Of a stretch of DNA of 13,486 bases, positions 542 to 13,486 are shown in pieces. The position numbers and the translations under genes are program-made. The notes beneath the pieces were generated by a model. It was not told the origin of the DNA. It worked only from the letters and a program-made list of their open reading frames with translations, and made no database searches. The stretch comes from a virus (lineage: Duplodnaviria; Heunggongvirae; Uroviricota; Caudoviricetes). How positions within the stretch are numbered: the stretch's first letter is position 1; the number at the start of each line of letters is the position of its first letter. The stretch lies in the IMG/VR virus record IMGVR_UViG_2534681899_000005. One strand, 5' to 3'.

Positions 542-1109
542 TAATAGATAAAGTAATAGACCACACAATAAATCCCCCCTAACCCCCCCAGGGGGAATGG
601 GGAGGGATCAGAGAGTGGGGAAGGTTTTCTAAGGGAAAAGCTTAACCCACAAATGAAAGCCTAAAGAGCATTAGTGACTCTTTAGGCAATCTGTGTGTGG
701 GTCACTCTGTGACTTTAGCTATACAGCTAAACCGACTACATCGGCCTGTGTGTGGGGTGACAATGTATTCCATACATGACACGTCACCCAATTGTGTGTG
801 GTCCGGCGAATGCGTCAGCATGAGGCCCACATGTGGACCGCTGCCGAAAGCTTGCCAGCGCCGGAAGGAGGCAGCAAAGAGTCTCCCGCGCTCATGTGTG
901 GGCGTATACGTAAGATATACATTCATAAATCCAATTCTAGGCACCTAAATGGCCTTCTGGCTGCATTAACCTGTGTGAGTAGTGCAATTGCATTACCTGA
1001 CCTCTAAATCGCGTTAGAATCGATTTTAGAGCGCTTAAGGCAAAAAGTGCCCTCCCTCCCTTGTGGGCTTGCTTGTACCTATAGCACACCTAAATGATAA
1101 TAATTCTCA

Positions 1110-1138
1110 TTGACAATTGGTTGACAATATGATAAGAT
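1110..1138 (+). promoter_or_regulatory. Candidate sigma70 promoter (TTGACA-17-TAAGAT), with a second TTGACAAT copy at 1121
   Basis: -35 TTGACA at 1110-1115 and -10-like TAAGAT at 1133-1138; TTGACAAT is duplicated 11 bp downstream. Confidence 0.3.
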
Positions 1139-1173: not shown

Positions 1174-1323
1174 GTGGAAATTACTGATGCAATAGCGATC
1201 ATCAACCTGGCTGTACTGTGGTGCGGTGTTGCCTACATAGCCGGAGTAACTGCAATCGACAATCTTGAAGAAAAAATGATAGATAAATACAAAAAGATTG
1301 TTGACAATTTGACGAATGTCTGA
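1174..1323 (+). CDS. Hypothetical small hydrophobic peptide (49 codons, GTG start)
   Basis: GGAGG at 1164-1168 lies 5 nt before GTG 1174. The translation VEITDAIAIINLAVLWCGVAYIAGVTAIDNLEEKMIDKYKKIVDNLTNV has one predicted TM helix and a charged tail. Below the ORF-track size cutoff and overlaps the downstream promoter. Confidence 0.2.
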   Translation: MEITDAIAIINLAVLWCGVAYIAGVTAIDNLEEKMIDKYKKIVDNLTNV

Positions 1324-1329
1324 TAAAAT
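1301..1329 (+). promoter_or_regulatory. Strong sigma70-type promoter for the rightward Rep operon (TTGACA-17-TAAAAT)
   Basis: -35 TTGACA at 1301-1306, 17-bp spacer, -10 TAAAAT at 1324-1329; 125 bp upstream of the first operon ATG; near-identical to the minus-strand promoter at 10859-10887. Confidence 0.55.
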
Positions 1330-1454
1330 ATAAAGCATAGGGTAATTCTCATCATAGTGAATTTCCTTTAGTAGACTGGCGGGGGCTTGTATTAAGTTCC
1401 CGTTTCTTTTTAACCGTATATCGCACAGGCGGTGAGCTGACAGGAGATTGAATC

Positions 1455-4592: not shown

Positions 4593-6719
4593 ATGGCAAT
4601 GAAGGAAGTCGCCAGACTAACAAACGTTATTTACTGGGATTCTGATAAATCCAGCTGGCGAAAAGAAGTTAAACGGCTTGAGGATTATAAAAAATCCTGG
4701 AAGAAAGCCACCGACGATATAGCTAAAGCGGATTTTAAATCGAATCAGGCTGTGCTCAGAACACAAAGAACACGCGCTAAGGTGGAAGAGCAGATTGCCA
4801 GAGCACAGAAGAAACAACGTGCTCAGGCTGTCAGCCGTCTGACCGGGGGCAATAATCCGGAGCTCTCCTCTATGCGCAAGTTCTACCAACAACAAGCCAG
4901 AGAAGCCGCCAGACAACAAAAACTGTTAGATCGTAGTGTTGGAGATGTTCAGCACAGAAAAGCACGTGTAGGGGCCAACAGTGCACGAATCAGCAGCATG
5001 TTTGATGGCTCCCTGGTTGCTCAGTTCCAATCCAGAATTCAGAGAGTTAATGCTGATTATGCTAAAGGGGCTATTAACCTGCAGACCTATAATCAGAAAA
5101 TGGCCCGACTCAGAGCTGAAATGAAGATGGCAACAGCAGAGGCCGGAAAATTTCAGAGCAGACTAGACAAAGCTGCGGTAGCAGGATCTAAGCTGCATGA
5201 CAACCTGGGGAAACTCAACTCCACACTTGGCAAGATAGCTATTGGCCTTACTGCCGCTGGCTGGGGTGTTCAGCGTGCTGTTAGTGGTGCTATGGGTAGC
5301 CTTGCAGATCGCAACAGTGCCTACTTCGGTTTGATGGCACAGAACAAGGATGATAAAGCCAAGACTGATCAGCAGATGGCTTTTATCAAGAACACAGCCT
5401 ACACCTACGGGATGGATGAGCGGGAGATGCAAGGTGGCTACATGCGCTTTGCTGCAGCTACCCCCACCATGAAGGAATCTGATAAGCAGGCTCTTTTTGA
5501 GGCTATGGCTATTAAAGGTCGCTCAGTGGGTGCTACTGGCGAGCAACAGAACAGGGCGCTTGTTGCGGTCCAACAAATGGCTTCAAAGGGAAAAGTTATG
5601 GCAGAAGAGCTGCGGGGCCAACTGTCAGAAGCCTTTGCAGGCTCACAACAGGATTTTCAACAGGCCGCTATTGATGCCGGAATCATCAAGAATGCCCAGG
5701 AATTCGATAAAGCCCTTAAAGATGGCAAAATCACCCTGGATAAGCTTCTCCCTTCTTTGGTGAAAATCTGGGGTGCTGCAAAAGAAACTAAAGCTTTTGC
5801 TGAATCCATGAAACAGCCAGAAGTAGCAATGCAGCGCATGAAAAACAGCTTTAACGAGCTGGCGATCCAGTTTATGGGTGTTGTAGATCCTGCAGATGGC
5901 GTTATTAGCTTATCTGAATCTCTGATCTCCATCTTCGAAGACCTCACTACTGATATGGACGGCAGCGGGAGCGCGGCAAAACAGTTTGGTGAGGCAGTCG
6001 GTGCTGCCATGCGGGAGATCATGTATTGGGTAGGCTTCGCTAAGGGATATATTGAGGTCAAGGCTAAAGAGTTCGGCATGACCGGATCAGAGGTTGGCGA
6101 GCTTATCGGGAAACTGGTAGTCGGCTTAGCTGGTCTGAAAGTTATTACCACACTGCTTTCCCCTCTAACCGGATTTGTTTCACTTGTCACCCAACTGATT
6201 TCTCTGATAGGCAAGATTCCAGGTCTGGGCAATCTCGTTAAGGGTGCAGGTGGTGCAGTCGCTGGAAGCCCAACAACAGCATTAGCCGCTGGCAGTGCCG
6301 CAGGTGTGGGTGTTGGTGTCGCTGGCGCACTGGGCGCTAAGACGGTAGGTGAGAAGTTCAGAGGATGGATGCAAAGCAAGGCTGATCAGTTCGGGGAGTG
6401 GGCTAAATCTAAAGGCCTGCTTAGCGATGAACAGGACGCTATGACCAAACCGGGGGCCTATAACCATAGCTACATCAACAAGGGAGCTTCTTTTAATCCA
6501 TATCCAACCATTAGCCCATCACGTCCTACTCCTAGCACTGGTACGGCTATTCAGAATGGTGGCTATCAACCTGCTCAGGTTAATGTGGTGCCTCAAGGTG
6601 AGATTTCCGGCAAATGGGAGATAACCATCGATGAGGGGGGAATTGCCAGGGTGATTCAGAAGGAAGTCAGCGATCAGTTGGATTGGAAAGCCACACAGGA
6701 ATCTAATCAGCTTTTCTAA
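4593..6719 (+). CDS. Phage tail tape-measure-like protein (708 aa)
   Basis: GAGGTG RBS then ATG 4593. N-terminal about 200 aa is Q/R/A/K-rich and coiled-coil-like; central ..GATGEQQNRALVAVQQMASKGKVMAEELRGQLSEAFAG.. resembles the conserved tape-measure core; C-terminal Gly/Ala-rich hydrophobic segments; no Walker A or catalytic motif seen. Confidence 0.6.
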   Translation: MAMKEVARLTNVIYWDSDKSSWRKEVKRLEDYKKSWKKATDDIAKADFKSNQAVLRTQRTRAKVEEQIARAQKKQRAQAVSRLTGGNNPELSSMRKFYQQQAREAARQQKLLDRSVGDVQHRKARVGANSARISSMFDGSLVAQFQSRIQRVNADYAKGAINLQTYNQKMARLRAEMKMATAEAGKFQSRLDKAAVAGSKLHDNLGKLNSTLGKIAIGLTAAGWGVQRAVSGAMGSLADRNSAYFGLMAQNKDDKAKTDQQMAFIKNTAYTYGMDEREMQGGYMRFAAATPTMKESDKQALFEAMAIKGRSVGATGEQQNRALVAVQQMASKGKVMAEELRGQLSEAFAGSQQDFQQAAIDAGIIKNAQEFDKALKDGKITLDKLLPSLVKIWGAAKETKAFAESMKQPEVAMQRMKNSFNELAIQFMGVVDPADGVISLSESLISIFEDLTTDMDGSGSAAKQFGEAVGAAMREIMYWVGFAKGYIEVKAKEFGMTGSEVGELIGKLVVGLAGLKVITTLLSPLTGFVSLVTQLISLIGKIPGLGNLVKGAGGAVAGSPTTALAAGSAAGVGVGVAGALGAKTVGEKFRGWMQSKADQFGEWAKSKGLLSDEQDAMTKPGAYNHSYINKGASFNPYPTISPSRPTPSTGTAIQNGGYQPAQVNVVPQGEISGKWEITIDEGGIARVIQKEVSDQLDWKATQESNQLF

Positions 6720-7246: not shown

Positions 7247-7705
7247 TCAGCCTCTCCCCACATTTGACCAGTATTTGATTGCACCGATCAAATCATCATA
7301 GTGGCGCATTGCATCATTGAAGCCTTTATAGCTTGCCCATTGTGGGGAAACCTTGTTATTGCTGAATTGCCCACTAATCAGGATAGTCTCCAAAATGTCG
7401 GCGTATCGCTTGCCAATTCGCTTTCTGACGGCCTCAGAGCTCCCACCCTTTACGATTGCATTAATCAGGGCTTTTGTGTGTCTCAGGCTCTCATAGAGCA
7501 TTGCAGCGTGGGCAGATTCCATAAAGGAGCGCTTAGGCAGATCACCCCACCCCTCAGAATGAATTGCTGCCAGTGTGGCGTAATTCAGGCCGCTATAGTG
7601 TTTCCCGTCATCCCAGCCAACCGCTACACCTTCCATCTGTGAGAGCTCTTTATGCAGCTTATCCATCATGCGCTTGTCTATGGTGCAACGGACTTTCGGA
7701 CTCAT
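7247..7705 (-). CDS. Phage virion morphogenesis / head-tail joining protein (HK97 gp10 / Mu G-like), 152 aa
   Basis: Start overlaps the upstream stop by ATGA (7702-7705); motif ..NYATLAAIHSEGWGDLPKRSFMES.. resembles the Y-A-x-H-x-x-G...P-x-R-x-F signature of this family, recalled from memory. Confidence 0.4.
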   Translation of the reverse strand: MSPKVRCTIDKRMMDKLHKELSQMEGVAVGWDDGKHYSGLNYATLAAIHSEGWGDLPKRSFMESAHAAMLYESLRHTKALINAIVKGGSSEAVRKRIGKRYADILETILISGQFSNNKVSPQWASYKGFNDAMRHYDDLIGAIKYWSNVGRG

Positions 7706-8514
7706 TTGTTGATCTCCGTGATGTCATCGAGCAACATGTTGGCCTTATCAATCATCGTTTCGTGGAACTCATTCGACACAACAGACTTATCACCTGCGGC
7801 AATCTTTCCCGCTGCCTCTCCCTGTGCATATTCCCCGCGATGCTTAGCCCTGGTTGATTTCGTAGCAGCGTTGCCAGCGTTGCTACCCTCTTTAGCACTG
7901 TTAACAGCGCCCTTTTGCTGTGTTTTATTCACCTTCTTACTGTTAGTGAAAACTCCGGCATTTTCGACCATCTTCACCTTGAAGGTGCGGAATTCTTCAA
8001 AAGTGCAATCAATAGTGATGCAGTCACCAGAGGAAGAGCTACGCTTAACTTCACATTTCGTCATGATGAAGTTCTCAAGGAGTCCGGCATCTTCACTTAC
8101 CAGGCTAACTAGCTGGCGCTTGTCTCTCATTTCCATAAGTGCCTGAACAGCGGCAGCAGGGCGCATAGATTCACGGGGATTATCTGGATCAGTGTTCCGG
8201 TCGATGTAGTTCTCTTTCCGGATGATATGAGGGGAAGAGGTAATAATGCCCGTAAAGCTGACAGATTTATCTTTAATGACGGCATGGTCTGACATGGTGG
8301 TGCCATCCTCGACCGCATAGCTCGATTTCTCGACAGGGAACGAATAGCTGACATCAGAGATTGAGTCAAAGAAGATAGCCACGTTATCGGTATAGTTGAA
8401 GCCATCCATTATATTTTTGTTTTGTGAATATCCCCCACACATAACAGTGAATGCAGGAGATCTCGATTCAGCTTGTTTTGCAGCTGTCAGAGCATCACTA
8501 GCCATATTAAACAT
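7702..8514 (-). CDS. Hypothetical protein, possibly phage structural (270 aa)
   Basis: Long ORF in the capsid operon, translationally coupled to the next gene; C-terminal half is low-complexity K/A/G/N-rich; no family recognised. Confidence 0.45.
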   Translation of the reverse strand: MFNMASDALTAAKQAESRSPAFTVMCGGYSQNKNIMDGFNYTDNVAIFFDSISDVSYSFPVEKSSYAVEDGTTMSDHAVIKDKSVSFTGIITSSPHIIRKENYIDRNTDPDNPRESMRPAAAVQALMEMRDKRQLVSLVSEDAGLLENFIMTKCEVKRSSSSGDCITIDCTFEEFRTFKVKMVENAGVFTNSKKVNKTQQKGAVNSAKEGSNAGNAATKSTRAKHRGEYAQGEAAGKIAAGDKSVVSNEFHETMIDKANMLLDDITEINK

Positions 8515-8610: not shown

Positions 8611-8862
8611 TTATTTTGCAAAACGATTATGCGCATTCAGGGCTTTTTTGCGGTCCTGGGCTTGTTTGCGTGCAATAAAATGTTCGAAAGTCTCGGCCCA
8701 GGTGCATTTATTATATTCACGGTATTTATGCATAGCCTGGCGGCTAACGTCATAGCAGGCGGCAAATGTGGAGATACGCAGGAATTCCGGCAGATCCTCG
8801 TCATCGATATGGATAATATCAAAAGGCACGTCGTCACGGTCGCCGTATAAAACAATTTTCAT
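8611..8862 (-). CDS. Hypothetical small protein (83 aa from ATG; track ORF extends to GTG at 8871)
   Basis: GAGGTG RBS 6 nt before the ATG (complement of 8860-8862); acidic N-terminus, basic C-terminus with a possible HTH (FAACYDVSRQAMHKYRE). Confidence 0.4.
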   Translation of the reverse strand: MKIVLYGDRDDVPFDIIHIDDEDLPEFLRISTFAACYDVSRQAMHKYREYNKCTWAETFEHFIARKQAQDRKKALNAHNRFAK

Positions 8863-8975
8863 AAAAGACACCTCAAAAACTTAAGACGGGGATAATAAAA
8901 AAGGGAAGAGGGAAAGACCTATCCCCGATCTCTCACCTCTTCCCTTTGCTTTTATTTGGCCTTCGAAGAAGGACC

Positions 8976-10022
8976 TTATTTAGCCTTGGCTTTTGCCAGA
9001 GCAGCGGCGGCGGAGTTACTAACACTCACTTTAACCACAACTTCAGGCATCATGTTCATGAAAGCATAAGAGGATTCAATGAAGATTTCTCGTTTACCTC
9101 TGGACTCTTCCATATACATGAAAGCTTCACGTGCAGCGCCGTTTGCAAGCTTCAGGTTGCGAGCGCAAGGGCCGAAAAATTGAGTATAAACGCCCACCAT
9201 ATCGCCTAACGCATGCGGCTGGAACTGTGGGACCAGATAAGCAGTATTCTCTGGCAGACTATCCATTTGCACCACACGCAGAGCTAAGCCTGGAATGCGG
9301 AAAGTCGGGAAGCCCGGCAGAATATCCTCAGGGAACATCAGACCTTTATCGGTAATATTCTGATTGCCGAACAACAGCACTTTTCGCAACAGTTCATCAG
9401 TCTGAATTGCAGCAAAGAGTTCAGCACGGCAGAACAGGGTGAAACCACGCAGAGCACGAACGACACCACGCTGTTTAACCTTGCTCAGTGCAACCAGGTC
9501 CTGCAGTTGTTTGAGGATGTCTTGAGCTAGATCCACTTCAGAGGTGGACTGTTCCACGCCCAGCAGTTCGCACACATTCAGTTCTTTACCCTTGGTGAGG
9601 ATAATTTTGTTCTCAAAGAGAGCAAGCTGGCGTGCTTCTTCGTGGGTCTGGCGTAAGCCTTCACCCAACTGAATAACACGACGAGCGGTTACAGACTCTA
9701 AATTCTCTTCGGAATCTTTGCCCGGAACACGGATACCTTGCCAGTCAGAAGGATAAATAGCACTTGATGCGGCAGTGAATGCCATATCACCCGTGCCCGT
9801 TTCACGCTCATCTGCGGTAATGGTAGCCATCTGTTCACCGTAGCGCGGATACTGACCGAAAGCGGATTGTTTCACCTGGCGAACTTTGTCATATTCAAAT
9901 TTAAAGGTATTGCACAGAGCAGTAGTGTTGAAGATATCCATTGCTGAAATAATCTGGTTATCCAGCGGGATATCTTTAATCAGACCACACAGATCGCGAA
10001 CTTCGAATTCTTTCTTAGCCAT
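8976..10022 (-). CDS. Putative major capsid protein, lambda gpE-like (348 aa)
   Basis: ATG (complement of 10020-10022) with AAGGAGG RBS 6 nt upstream; the track ORF starts at in-frame TTG. Size and C-terminal segment (..KREIFIESSYAFMNMMPEVVVKV..) resemble lambda E-family capsid proteins as recalled; follows a ~110-aa gene as in lambda D-E. Not searched. Confidence 0.45.
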   Translation of the reverse strand: MAKKEFEVRDLCGLIKDIPLDNQIISAMDIFNTTALCNTFKFEYDKVRQVKQSAFGQYPRYGEQMATITADERETGTGDMAFTAASSAIYPSDWQGIRVPGKDSEENLESVTARRVIQLGEGLRQTHEEARQLALFENKIILTKGKELNVCELLGVEQSTSEVDLAQDILKQLQDLVALSKVKQRGVVRALRGFTLFCRAELFAAIQTDELLRKVLLFGNQNITDKGLMFPEDILPGFPTFRIPGLALRVVQMDSLPENTAYLVPQFQPHALGDMVGVYTQFFGPCARNLKLANGAAREAFMYMEESRGKREIFIESSYAFMNMMPEVVVKVSVSNSAAAALAKAKAK

Positions 10023-10033
10023 TTTCAACCTCC

Positions 10034-10369
10034 TTATTGTGCAACACGCAAATCGCCATTGCTGGCAGCAATAACAGCGGCTAAGCCGTCTTTATCCACG
10101 TAGGCCGGATTGATATAACAGCCCTTGTTGGCAACAACGATAAAAGCGTCGCCAACTTCAGCACGTTCTACAACCAGCAGCGGAGTTTTATCTGTGTGCG
10201 TTGCTTTAACGAAGGTCTCAACCTCGCCAGCCTCAGTTACCACAACAACAGTGCCAGCCGGAATCTCAGCTTTAACTTTGTTTTTAATTTCAACGTCGCG
10301 AATACTAAATTGCTCATCTGCGGCGTATGAAATGATGTGTCCGCGTGTGCGGATAGTCATATCTTTCAT
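10034..10369 (-). CDS. Putative head decoration protein, lambda gpD-like (111 aa)
   Basis: AGGTGA RBS then ATG (complement of 10367-10369); beta-rich small protein directly upstream of the capsid candidate; first gene after the promoter. Confidence 0.35.
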   Translation of the reverse strand: MKDMTIRTRGHIISYAADEQFSIRDVEIKNKVKAEIPAGTVVVVTEAGEVETFVKATHTDKTPLLVVERAEVGDAFIVVANKGCYINPAYVDKDGLAAVIAASNGDLRVAQ

Positions 10370-10667
10370 TTGATCACCTGCGATTTAAATTAACTCCCCT
10401 CAAAGAGTTCCGGTATAACCTCTCAAACCACGACAGGCTCGGGCCGAAAAGTTATGCCGGAAATCTAAAGGGAAATTGATACAAGGAGAGGGAGATAGCC
10501 CCGCACCGTCCAAGCGGGGGCTATTCCACATGGGGAAACCGACAACAGTCGGATGATAGTTCACAGTATGATTACGGTTACTAGAGAGCACTATCACGAA
10601 AGGCACTCCCCCGGATCAGTTCAGGCTGCGGTCACATCAGCGGGGAAATACCTTTCGGGATAGCTAC

Positions 10668-10701
10668 CCACACAGAAAACCCGCAAAAGAAAACTGTGTG
10701 G
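10668..10701. promoter_or_regulatory. Inverted repeat CCACACAG-N18-CTGTGTGG in the capsid-operon leader
   Basis: Perfect 8-bp arms at 10668-10675 and 10694-10701; lies in the roughly 480-nt leader between promoter and decoration gene; overlaps TGTGGATAA. Confidence 0.35.
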
Positions 10702-10850
10702 ATAACTAGCCCAATAGGAGAATTAATCGACCACTCAACGATGATCAGGGTAGTGTTATTTATAAGGCGGCACCGCTACCTGGTCGCCTTTACTTTGGAG
10801 GAAAATACGGCAAATCAAGATCTTCTCAAATGATATTGATTCCATACTAT

Positions 10851-10870
10851 ACTGTATATTATATCAGTAT
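10851..10870. promoter_or_regulatory. LexA-box-like palindrome (SOS operator candidate)
   Basis: Minus strand reads TACTGATATAATATACAGTA, which keeps CTG-N10-CAG with an AT-rich spacer (consensus TACTGTATATATATACAGTA); overlaps the -10 of the capsid-operon promoter. Confidence 0.5.
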
Positions 10871-10887
10871 TCTCTCAAATTGTCAAC
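10859..10887 (-). promoter_or_regulatory. Consensus sigma70 promoter for the leftward capsid operon (TTGACA-17-TATAAT)
   Basis: Minus strand reads gtgTTGACAatttgagagaatactgaTATAATat: -35 at 10882-10887, -10 at 10859-10864, exact 17-bp spacer. Confidence 0.6.
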
Positions 10888-11193
10888 ACCCTGATTATAT
10901 AAATTCTAATAATTAGCGTGGTAACTGTATTTTCAGACCTCTATCAATCCCATCAATACGTCACCCCACCCTTTAGATGCATACATCCGACCTACTTTGT
11001 AGGCTTGGCGTACTGCCAAGGTCGCAGCTATGCGACTCCTATCTATCACCACTTTATAAAGCTTGATAGATATCTTTTGATCAATATCAATGTTTTCCAG
11101 GGATTTACCCGGCTATAGTTCGAATCAAGGAAGGGGAGCATTGATAGCACCCAACCGAGCAAACAAATCAACTTCTCGCAAAAGGTGATAGTT

Positions 11194-11316
11194 ATGGGTA
11201 TCAAGAACAGTGCCAGCGCATGGCAAAAGGCCAGGTTTCATCACCCACACATTGTTAAGGCAATTGAGGTGGTTGGAGTTTTAGCCCTGATGTTAGCTCT
11301 GTGTGTGGAGGTGTGA
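11194..11316 (+). CDS. Hypothetical small hydrophobic peptide (40 aa)
   Basis: AAGGTGA RBS 6 nt before the ATG; translation MGIKNSASAWQKARFHHPHIVKAIEVVGVLALMLALCVEV has a C-terminal TM-like segment; its leader shares a 15-nt motif with the 173-aa gene leader. Confidence 0.25.
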   Translation: MGIKNSASAWQKARFHHPHIVKAIEVVGVLALMLALCVEV

Positions 11317-11380: not shown

Positions 11381-11423
11381 CATTGAGCGGAGTTTATGAA
11401 CAGCATTGAGAGGAGTTTATGAC
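11381..11423 (+). repeat. Tandem duplication of a translation-initiation region, with an 8-codon upstream ORF coupled by ATGA
   Basis: CATTGAGCGGAGTTTATGAA (11381-11400) is followed by a near-identical second copy (11404-11423, CATTGAGAGGAGTTTATGAC); mini-ORF 11396-11422 (MNSIERSL) stops at TGA overlapping the main ATG at 11419. Confidence 0.45.
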
Positions 11424-11679: not shown

Positions 11680-11736
11680 TAGGAACAGTCCAACAGGTTA
11701 TTAACTAAATTCAACTTCTCGCAAAGGGGTACCATT

Positions 11737-12258
11737 ATGTTATTTCAGAAAGATAAAGAATCAGTAAATAAAAGGCTTTTTAAAGAACTGGTAAAAATGT
11801 TCTTTCAGTACACTGCAGCGTTTTTGATAGCCGGGCCTTGGTTAATGGCTATCTGTTTTTACCCTGCTACCTTGTTTATTGGCAGTAGCAAGTTCGGCGA
11901 TGGCCCGTTTCATGTGGATATTGGTTTTATAGATTCTCTCCTGATCCGTCCTATAAATGCTGTTCTCAATGCTTTCTACTTCCCCACTAGTCTAGAGGGG
12001 TGGGCGGTAACCTGGGGTGTTTTAGGCTTAGCATATGTATATTGGTTGGTTGGCTTTTTGTGGGGTGCAATCTGTGCTCTCCTCGATATTGATACAGGAT
12101 CAAGCCGTAGGAGTGGTGGTAATAATAGCGGAGCGGGTGTATATGCACATGTAGGCACCAGGGGAGCTAGTGTTACCGCAGGTACCCGATTCGCTGGCGG
12201 CTGGCTGAGCATAGGCAAACGCGGCGTTAGTTGGAGAAAAAGCAAAAAACTGTTCTGA
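11737..12258 (+). CDS. Hypothetical membrane protein (173 aa, 2-3 predicted TM helices)
   Basis: ATG 11737 with a leader containing TCAACTTCTCGCAAA; hydrophobic segments (AAFLIAGPWLMAICFYPATLFIG; GWAVTWGVLGLAYVYWLVGFLWGAICALL); Gly/Ser/Arg-rich tail; followed by a terminator. Confidence 0.5.
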   Translation: MLFQKDKESVNKRLFKELVKMFFQYTAAFLIAGPWLMAICFYPATLFIGSSKFGDGPFHVDIGFIDSLLIRPINAVLNAFYFPTSLEGWAVTWGVLGLAYVYWLVGFLWGAICALLDIDTGSSRRSGGNNSGAGVYAHVGTRGASVTAGTRFAGGWLSIGKRGVSWRKSKKLF

Positions 12259-13127: not shown

Positions 13128-13391
13128 GCAATTTTCCCAACCCTTCAAATCAATGACTTACATGTAAGCATGCACTAACACCCCACACAGCACATTAGAC
13201 GTGTAGATGTCCATATCCCACATTTTTGATTGTTTTGTAGTCATTCCCCTGATCATTTAACCAGTATAGTTTGTTCTCTGCAGACCACAAAATCGGAATT
13301 TACATCTGATTAACATAATCTGTTAGCATGATCACCATTACCCACACAACAATAACCCCATGCAAGCCTCTTCAGGCAATTTATCGGCGTG

Positions 13392-13486
13392 TTGGTGTGA
13401 ACAGTCTTTCATGTTCTTTATGTATCAGTTGTCCTGTGTGGTGATTTGGTGGACTGCCCCAGGGGCCATACTTATGATGCCCGGTC
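13392..13486. repeat. Right copy of 95-bp terminal direct repeat
   Basis: Exact match to 1-95 on the same strand. Confidence 0.9.

Follow-up and report, generated by a model that had tools for sequence, protein, structure and literature searches.

Coliphage 186 (tum), N15 (antirepressor) and the colicin operons borrow LexA as a damage sensor via an operator at one key promoter; these operators are conserved and control antirepressor, lysis or toxin genes. Among phage satellites, operon I of the Staphylococcus aureus pathogenicity islands (SaPIs), which serves packaging and capsid remodelling, is LexA-controlled according to the account in PMC5052747 that cites Ubeda 2007. Here we analyze a stretch of 13,486 nucleotides (the window; IMG/VR record IMGVR_UViG_2534681899_000005, Caudoviricetes) that looks like a plasmid-borne, satellite-like element of Escherichia coli, in which a LexA-operator-like palindrome overlaps the promoter of an operon of phage capsid and tail genes. 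We lean towards a reading in which LexA would bind at 10869-10850 and block this consensus promoter, SOS induction would relieve the block, and the transcripts would then still face a long structured leader. The likeness to operon I, as far as that account describes it, would lie in a phage satellite morphogenesis operon placed under the host SOS repressor and not solely under a repressor of the element, so the LexA arrangement proposed here would be precedented in its logic. SaPIs are islands integrated in Gram-positive hosts, their helpers are temperate and SOS-inducible, and they remodel helper capsids and encode no major capsid protein (MCP), whereas this element is an E. coli iteron plasmid that encodes a capsid protein and tail parts of its own, with probably a virulent helper and a box that is not fixed. 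If LexA does repress the capsid promoter, the operon I arrangement would gain its first plasmid-borne, Gram-negative counterpart.

The promoter lies on the minus strand, which reads GGTG TTGACA ATTTGAGAGAATACTGA TATAAT ATACAGTATAG. By direct reading and a consensus scan, the -35 hexamer TTGACA occupies 10881-10886 and is separated by a spacer of 17 nt (10880-10864) from an extended -10, TGaTATAAT (10858-10866; TG at 10866-10865 and TATAAT at 10863-10858), with a predicted start site at about 10852-10850. At 10886-10858 (minus strand) it makes the window's sole 12/12 sigma-70 match, and the scan found no promoter of comparable quality nearer to the capsid and tail genes. Allowing up to one mismatch, TTGACA-N17-TATAAT has two matches in the window against 0.11 expected, the second being a paralogous promoter at 1301-1329, and the expectation for an exact match is far below that figure. 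All the sigma-70 features are present (-35, 17-bp spacer, -10 and TGn), the promoter is oriented toward the capsid and tail operon, and it is kept in relatives. A first, database-free inspection of these letters (the earlier note) had described a textbook TTGACA-17-TATAAT promoter on this strand, and the 12/12 match plus the TG extension confirm it. By these features the segment 10886-10858 is the strongest predicted promoter of the element.

Overlapping this promoter is the 20-mer TACTGATATAATATACAGTA (10850-10869, readable on either strand; CTG at 10867-10865, CAG at 10854-10852), which spans the TG extension, the entire -10 and the predicted +1. The outer five bases on each side form a perfect inverted repeat, the inner ten are not palindromic, and the spacer is A/T at 10 of 10 positions, with TATAAT inside it. 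The earlier note was thus right in placing the -10 within a palindrome with a CTG-N10-CAG core, although its span of 10851-10887 leaves out one base of the 20-mer (10869-10850), at the 3' edge. The bare CTG-N10-CAG core is common in the window (eight matches against 3.3 expected); the longer TACTG-N10-CAGTA, with up to one mismatch, has one match against 0.29 expected, and this match has no mismatch. There is no match in the window to the exact consensus TACTGTATATATATACAGTA with up to three mismatches, because the (TA)5 spacer stands in the other phase, and the 20-mer has no second copy elsewhere in the element.

We scored the site by the heterology index (HI), using an approximate matrix of 32 E. 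coli operators (after Lewis 1994 and Fernandez de Henestrosa 2000) that was not taken from a curated file, which makes the values approximate too. The 20-mer has an HI of 5.9 in the better of its two orientations, 8.8 in the reverse one and 7.2 after symmetrisation; it is the best site in the window, and it falls within the spread of the matrix's own training sites. In E. coli K-12 the HI is bimodal, with one peak at 7.34 for LexA binders and one at 22.3 for non-binders (PMC12527982), and by the boundaries of that study the range of 5.9-8.8, approximate as the matrix makes it, matches the low-HI, LexA-binding class. Shuffling the element 200 times with dinucleotides preserved yields 0.005 sites per shuffle with an HI of 6 or less. 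The element has three sites with an HI of 10 or less against 0.08 expected, a number reached by 0 of the 200 shuffles, and most full-length relatives have two to four such sites. Known E. coli operators also pair a CTGA half-site with a CTGT one, for example those of uvrA/ssb and yjiW. Judged by its sequence, TACTGATATAATATACAGTA would be a good E. coli LexA operator, sited to occlude both the -10 and the start site.

The site compares closely with the SOS boxes of E. coli (TACTG(TA)5CAGTA; sulA, umuDC, colicin genes), with which it shares the 20-bp architecture, the perfect arms and the all-A/T spacer; likewise, it lies in the HI range of binders, in an E. coli host, and over a -10 and start site, where repression would work by occlusion. 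It differs from them in having one CTGA half-site instead of CTGT, in being polymorphic (15 of 26 loci), in being a predicted site, and in overlapping a full-consensus promoter with an extended -10 that would compete strongly with LexA. The operators of 186 tum, N15 and the colicins differ from it as well, since the candidate described here sits on a structural-gene promoter and is polymorphic between an on and an off state. Given the sequence, the position and the host, the promoter would, as long as the cell is undamaged, most likely be occluded by dimers of host LexA, and cleavage of LexA stimulated by RecA would de-repress it. Past initiation, the leader would act through a hairpin homologous to a terminator and through a helix that sequesters the ribosome-binding site of the first gene.

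The promoter and the box were compared across 26 loci: the window plus seven RefSeq plasmids, four metagenome contigs that a search for the promoter pattern had yielded and 14 contigs encoding MCP variants. TTGACA is unchanged in all 26, and the end of the spacer and the -10 are also kept, with TATAAT in 22 of the 25 close relatives and TACAAT in three; the most distant relative, L012 (81% MCP identity), reads TTGACA-17-TAAAAT with the TG. The CAG arm is present in 15 of the 26 loci, which read ATACAGTAT. This +G allele, carried by over half of the loci sampled, occurs with three different leader backgrounds, and both it and the allele lacking the G (delta-G, as in NZ_CP178698) are seen on several variants of the downstream hairpin. 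The delta-G allele has an HI of 12.2-17.2, borderline to non-binding. The gain or loss of one G in ACA[G]TAT would switch the operator on or off with the promoter untouched, which would make SOS input an accessory, strain-variable layer. We looked for a link between the +/-G allele and accessory-gene or iteron variants and none was apparent, the family being mosaic.

This comparison also yields the main points against LexA control, and most of them speak for the strongest competitor of that reading, in which the palindrome arose by chance, the promoter is either constitutive or governed by the leader only, and the box is a neutral by-product of an indel at the start site. Ten close relatives read ATACATAT, with a single G deleted (ACA[G]TAT), and L012 lacks the box wholly, so that an operator accompanies only 15 of 26 orthologous promoters in which the -35 and -10 are kept. 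A LexA operator is accordingly not a fixed property of the capsid-module promoter of the kind seen in SaPI operon I. Since the CAG arm is gone from 10 of 25 close relatives (about 40%) and from L012 with the promoter intact, LexA control is dispensable. Further, the start-site region is a hot spot of slippage, where small indels are concentrated exactly at the start site (AGTAT once or twice, a duplicated AC and the +/-G indel). Elements with the delta-G allele, where it cannot serve as an operator, still have an invariant left arm, TACTG, which overlaps the TG; this suggests that it is retained for the extended -10, and the paralogous promoter at 1301-1329 likewise has CTGATA; the box is therefore one G insertion away from pre-existing promoter sequence. 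It also counts against LexA control that the HI matrix does not derive from a curated file, that the loci are not independent (a single MCP sequence recurs throughout L018-L025, and L013 hardly differs from L015), and that the virulent lineage of the likely helper leaves the purpose of SOS sensing hard to see. On the other side, a perfect TACTG-N10-CAGTA with an all-A/T spacer is expected only about 0.005-0.01 times per element, two further LexA-like sites are present, one of which keeps CTGT/ACAG arms through five spacer variants, and the frequency and varied backgrounds of the +G allele indicate that it is at least not counter-selected. We regard a fortuitous palindrome as a possible but less likely explanation than LexA binding. 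Control of this promoter by LexA is not family-defining, and SOS control of the capsid promoter looks like an optional extra and not the core switch.

Downstream of the promoter, the first open reading frame (ORF) starts at 10369, about 480 nt away, and the interval forms a conserved, structured, untranslated leader of 483 nt (10370-10852, minus strand; folding and alignment of relatives). It has a minimum free energy of -174.3 kcal/mol (z = -6.25 versus shuffles) and a conservation of 88-96%, above that of much of the coding DNA. Its hairpins include 10788-10766 and 10701-10668 (minus strand), and a long-range helix pairs 10747-10739 with 10382-10370, the latter containing the Shine-Dalgarno sequence of the first gene; two of its pairs are compensatory. 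RNAalifold on 20 distinct leader sequences gives 133 consensus pairs, 16 of them with compensatory changes, which come mostly from L012, while within the close family itself one GC/AU switch divides the sequences 10:9. A GC-rich hairpin at 10527-10491, followed by a C-rich, G-poor tract (10490-10459) in place of a T-run, has as its homologue in L012 a canonical intrinsic terminator (1402-1436; 15-bp stem plus T-run). Rfam returned only noise for the leader at E values up to 5. Translated small ORFs in the leader were considered and rejected, given indels that are not multiples of three and an annotation by PGAP that leaves the leader free of genes in seven of seven plasmids. As a separate observation, the 5' hairpin of the leader (10806-10846) is hypervariable, with at least seven sequence types among relatives otherwise 92-97% identical and with stem pairing to the invariant TGATTTGCC maintained; in this it resembles a specificity or immunity determinant.

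Control common to the whole family more likely sits after initiation, in this conserved leader. Were the palindrome fortuitous, the leader would exert it by termination and antitermination, or by a sequestration of the ribosome-binding site that a factor of the helper or of the element lifts; the strong structure of the leader, its conservation above coding DNA, the canonical terminator ahead of the first gene in L012 and a terminator-like hairpin that also follows the paralogous promoter all favour that possibility. The claim of the earlier note that the structural genes are directly under SOS control is overstated in any case, as the 483-nt leader intervenes and the tape-measure gene belongs to an opposite operon free of the box. 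A strong consensus promoter that seems unregulated, a leader and a terminator (in L012, and at 1378-1404 after the paralog) ahead of structural genes are also reminiscent of the PR'-tR' region of phage lambda and its antiterminator Q. In contrast to lambda, no Q homologue was found among the window proteins, the spacer, in which a Q-binding element would lie, varies in the paralog, and a TATAGT pause element (at about +1) is present in only some alleles. For these differences, the spacer that changes between variants and the allele-specific pause-like hexamer, we did not adopt a lambda-Q-type reading of the two promoters.

The leader also bears on another explanation, which partly overlaps the others and which we consider rather unlikely, namely that the chief product of the promoter is a structured non-coding RNA of about 350-480 nt that stands alone, with the structural genes expressed by read-through or from another, helper-dependent start. 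A non-coding leader as structured and as conserved as this one would fit such a product, as would the canonical terminator that L012 carries 340-370 nt downstream of its start and the GC-rich hairpin at 10527-10491 with its C-rich, G-poor tract, which could perhaps load Rho. Opposed to it are the lack of an intrinsic terminator between 10850 and 10369 in a simple scan of the window, the lack of a comparable promoter nearer to the genes, and the pairing of the leader's closing helix with the Shine-Dalgarno sequence of the first gene, which implies one shared transcript.

The paralogous promoter, TTGACA-17-TAAAAT (1301-1329, plus strand; consensus scan), precedes the operon of the rep and tape-measure genes, and a terminator-like hairpin (1378-1404, plus strand) lies after it and ahead of that operon. 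The two promoter regions share 54 nt at 74% identity, spacer bases included. The paralog reads CTG-N10-AAG, with an HI of about 17, and so is without a LexA box. Its spacer is wholly different in other family members (ATCTCGCAAATAGCTGA); a spacer that varies in this way between members argues that the shared one is not a conserved operator. Beside this promoter, -35 motifs of the form TTGACAAT are also found at 1110 and 1121 (region 1104-1138, plus strand), upstream of a 49-aa hydrophobic ORF (1174-1323).

The element also encodes candidate regulators of its own. A protein of 86 aa with a helix-turn-helix (HTH) match, HTH_7, is encoded about 530 bp upstream of the capsid promoter, in a cluster of divergently oriented genes, and further weak HTH proteins are encoded elsewhere, so that the absence of an element-encoded repressor, as asserted in the earlier note, cannot be claimed. 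Three of the five TTGATAG copies of the window cluster at 10941-11147 together with a TTGATA...TATCAA inverted repeat, between the capsid promoter and a divergent 40-aa ORF (11194-11316) and the HTH gene; these copies are candidate sites for a regulator encoded by the element. It is very unlikely, in our view, that the palindrome or the shared promoter core is the operator of a regulator other than LexA (the 86-aa HTH_7 protein, another HTH protein of the element, or a helper-phage factor coordinating both operons): the similarity of the two promoters, spacer bases included, the HTH genes and the TTGATAG copies between HTH gene and promoter would suit it, but the paralog lacks the right arm (AAG, not CAG) and has a different spacer within the family, the 20-mer is not repeated in the element, and the sole palindromic element, TACTG...CAGTA, has exactly the specificity of LexA.

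Returning to LexA, two more sites in the window resemble its operators, both within a non-coding region of 2.5 kb. Site A, ACCTGTGTGTTTATACAGTC (365-384, either strand; HI 6.9), adjoins the iterons, and its CTGT-N8-ACAG is kept through five spacer variants although the iteron region around it is mosaic and poorly conserved. Site B, CCCTGATCATTTAACCAGTA (13247-13266, either strand; HI 9.5), is conserved in most relatives, but its flanks are equally so. Both could be LexA sites or inverted repeats related to Rep. The sequence TGTTTTG[C/T]AGTCATT adjoins site A (392-406) as well as site B (13227-13245). Yet another polymorphic LexA-like site is found directly upstream of the 86-aa HTH gene (11386-11405), where some relatives (L006 at 3884, L007 at 4149) read AGCTGAGTTTATGAACAGCA, with an HI of 9.6, and the window reads AGCGGAG..., with an HI of 13.8.

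As for the element itself, bases 1-95 of the window are repeated as 13392-13486, which gives a circle of 13,391 bp, and the window contains iterons (432-542) and encodes an O/DnaD-like Rep protein. Across at least 82% of its length, the element shares 93-96% identity with seven complete plasmids (13.3-13.7 kb) of E. coli; they come from chicken, human, pig and bovine sources on four continents, and one extra related record, of 39.6 kb, contains three copies of the element. E. coli is the host in seven of seven RefSeq records and for every named protein source, E275a and RM10740 being examples of strains that bear the plasmid. The relatives found by a search for MCP homologues, which was not an exhaustive HMM (hidden Markov model) search, are all from E. 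coli, all at least 81% identical, and the largest MCP cluster has 441 member sequences. Scans of IMG/VR and of GTDB representatives with the MCP or the promoter pattern gave no match. In the phage database there was no nucleotide match for the window as a whole and none for the promoter and leader region, and the large non-coding region gave only one 50-nt match at chance level. No tRNA or tmRNA gene was found in the window, and Rfam at the gathering threshold gave only noise over its whole length. With an MCP, a tape-measure protein of 708 aa, a Dit-like protein and a tail completion protein, the window encodes a partial set of virion genes. Taken together, it is a circular 13.4-kb E. coli iteron plasmid with phage head and tail genes, and it looks like a plasmid-borne element similar to a phage satellite.

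The capsid operon has five genes, all on the minus strand. The first encodes a protein of 111 aa (10034-10369) annotated as hypothetical in all relatives, and is followed by the MCP gene (8976-10028, 350 aa; phrog_29 major head protein, E = 3e-21; 'major capsid protein' in RefSeq) and by a small conserved ORF of 83-86 aa (8611-8871; ORF list and relatives). Next come a Dit-like, tail tube initiator protein of 270 aa (7702-8514; PF21821, E = 2e-25) and, as the last gene, a tail completion, Neck1-like protein of 152 aa (7247-7705; phrog_222, E = 8e-29), after which the terminator scan placed a terminator-like hairpin (7180-7155). A phage relative of the capsid protein was sought and none was detectable. 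The Dit-like protein is 51% identical in amino acids to the 'tail tube initiator protein' of rV5-like Vequintavirinae, a group of virulent myophages of E. coli about 136 kb in size. The tail completion protein has relatives, at 49% identity, in other large myophages (about 140-150 kb), for example Pectobacterium phage phiTE. The tape-measure protein (4593-6719, plus strand, in the opposite operon; family match) is 26% identical to rV5-like ones and shorter, with 708 aa versus 778 in phage MaxTheCat. The helper that these matches suggest is an rV5-type myophage, large and virulent, and head and tail may both be re-specified. The sensing of helper induction, proposed in the earlier note as a use of the box, is unlikely, since the tail genes resemble, at about 50% identity, the ones of the virulent rV5-like Vequintavirinae and not those of a temperate phage. 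With a virulent helper, we speculate, SOS could plausibly be triggered only by the damage that lytic infection does to DNA.

A more elaborate scenario would join these threads, and we offer it as an improbable one when taken as a whole: a new family of E. coli plasmids, satellites of virulent rV5-like myophages (Vequintavirinae) with their own capsid and a re-specified tail, would use LexA at the capsid promoter and at sites A and B, the +/-G alleles would be maintained as SOS-responsive and SOS-blind morphs, and cleavage of LexA upon lytic DNA damage would serve as an infection sensor on top of a new kind of riboregulatory leader. Like the phage-inducible chromosomal islands (PICIs) of the capsid-forming kind and the P4-like satellites, the element is about 13 kb long and carries a subset of virion genes, with no full tail set detected, and P4 can also be a plasmid. 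It differs from them in its iteron and Rep replication, in its tape-measure, tail tube initiator and tail completion proteins of myophage kinship, and in the proposed role of LexA, late-gene control in P4 and capsid-forming PICIs not being LexA-based. Family and profile searches of the window proteins gave no recognisable match to an integrase, terminase, portal, protease or TerS, and with this gene content and a circular iteron plasmid as its form we rejected its assignment to the capsid-forming PICIs, which sit in the chromosome with an integrase and att sites and encode, besides an MCP, a portal, a protease, head-tail connectors and TerS. A LexA box over a promoter is by itself ordinary and precedented, and the plasmid-borne, satellite-like element is the more novel part: in the searchable literature we found no account of a satellite on a plasmid that has genes for a capsid and a tape measure, or of a satellite of Vequintavirinae, and no description of a 13.4-kb plasmid family with a capsid gene, rV5-like tail genes, a structured leader and the 15-fold excess of a 7-mer described below. 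The natural +G and delta-G alleles would offer a ready isogenic comparison of the value of SOS control to the fitness of a satellite.

Finally, two further features of the element as a whole were observed. Mosaic blocks at 201-500, 2201-2600, 6201-6500 and 11701-12200 have sharp edges and can be aligned to only 13-50% of relatives. They include the iteron region and the C-terminus of Rep, whose specificity types co-vary, and also part of the C-terminus of the tape-measure protein; the gene of a 173-aa membrane protein lies in a mosaic block too, and relatives have alleles of 195, 236 or 239 aa instead. The 7-mer CCACACA/TGTGTGG has 22 copies in the window against 1.46 expected, a 15-fold excess, and is found in both coding and non-coding DNA without extended context (for example at 141, 209, 561, 700, 755, 801, 901, 10668, 10701, 13183 and 13342). 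Per 10 kb, the close family members have 10-16 copies and the L012 contig about 6, and in an rV5-like phage segment the density is at background level.

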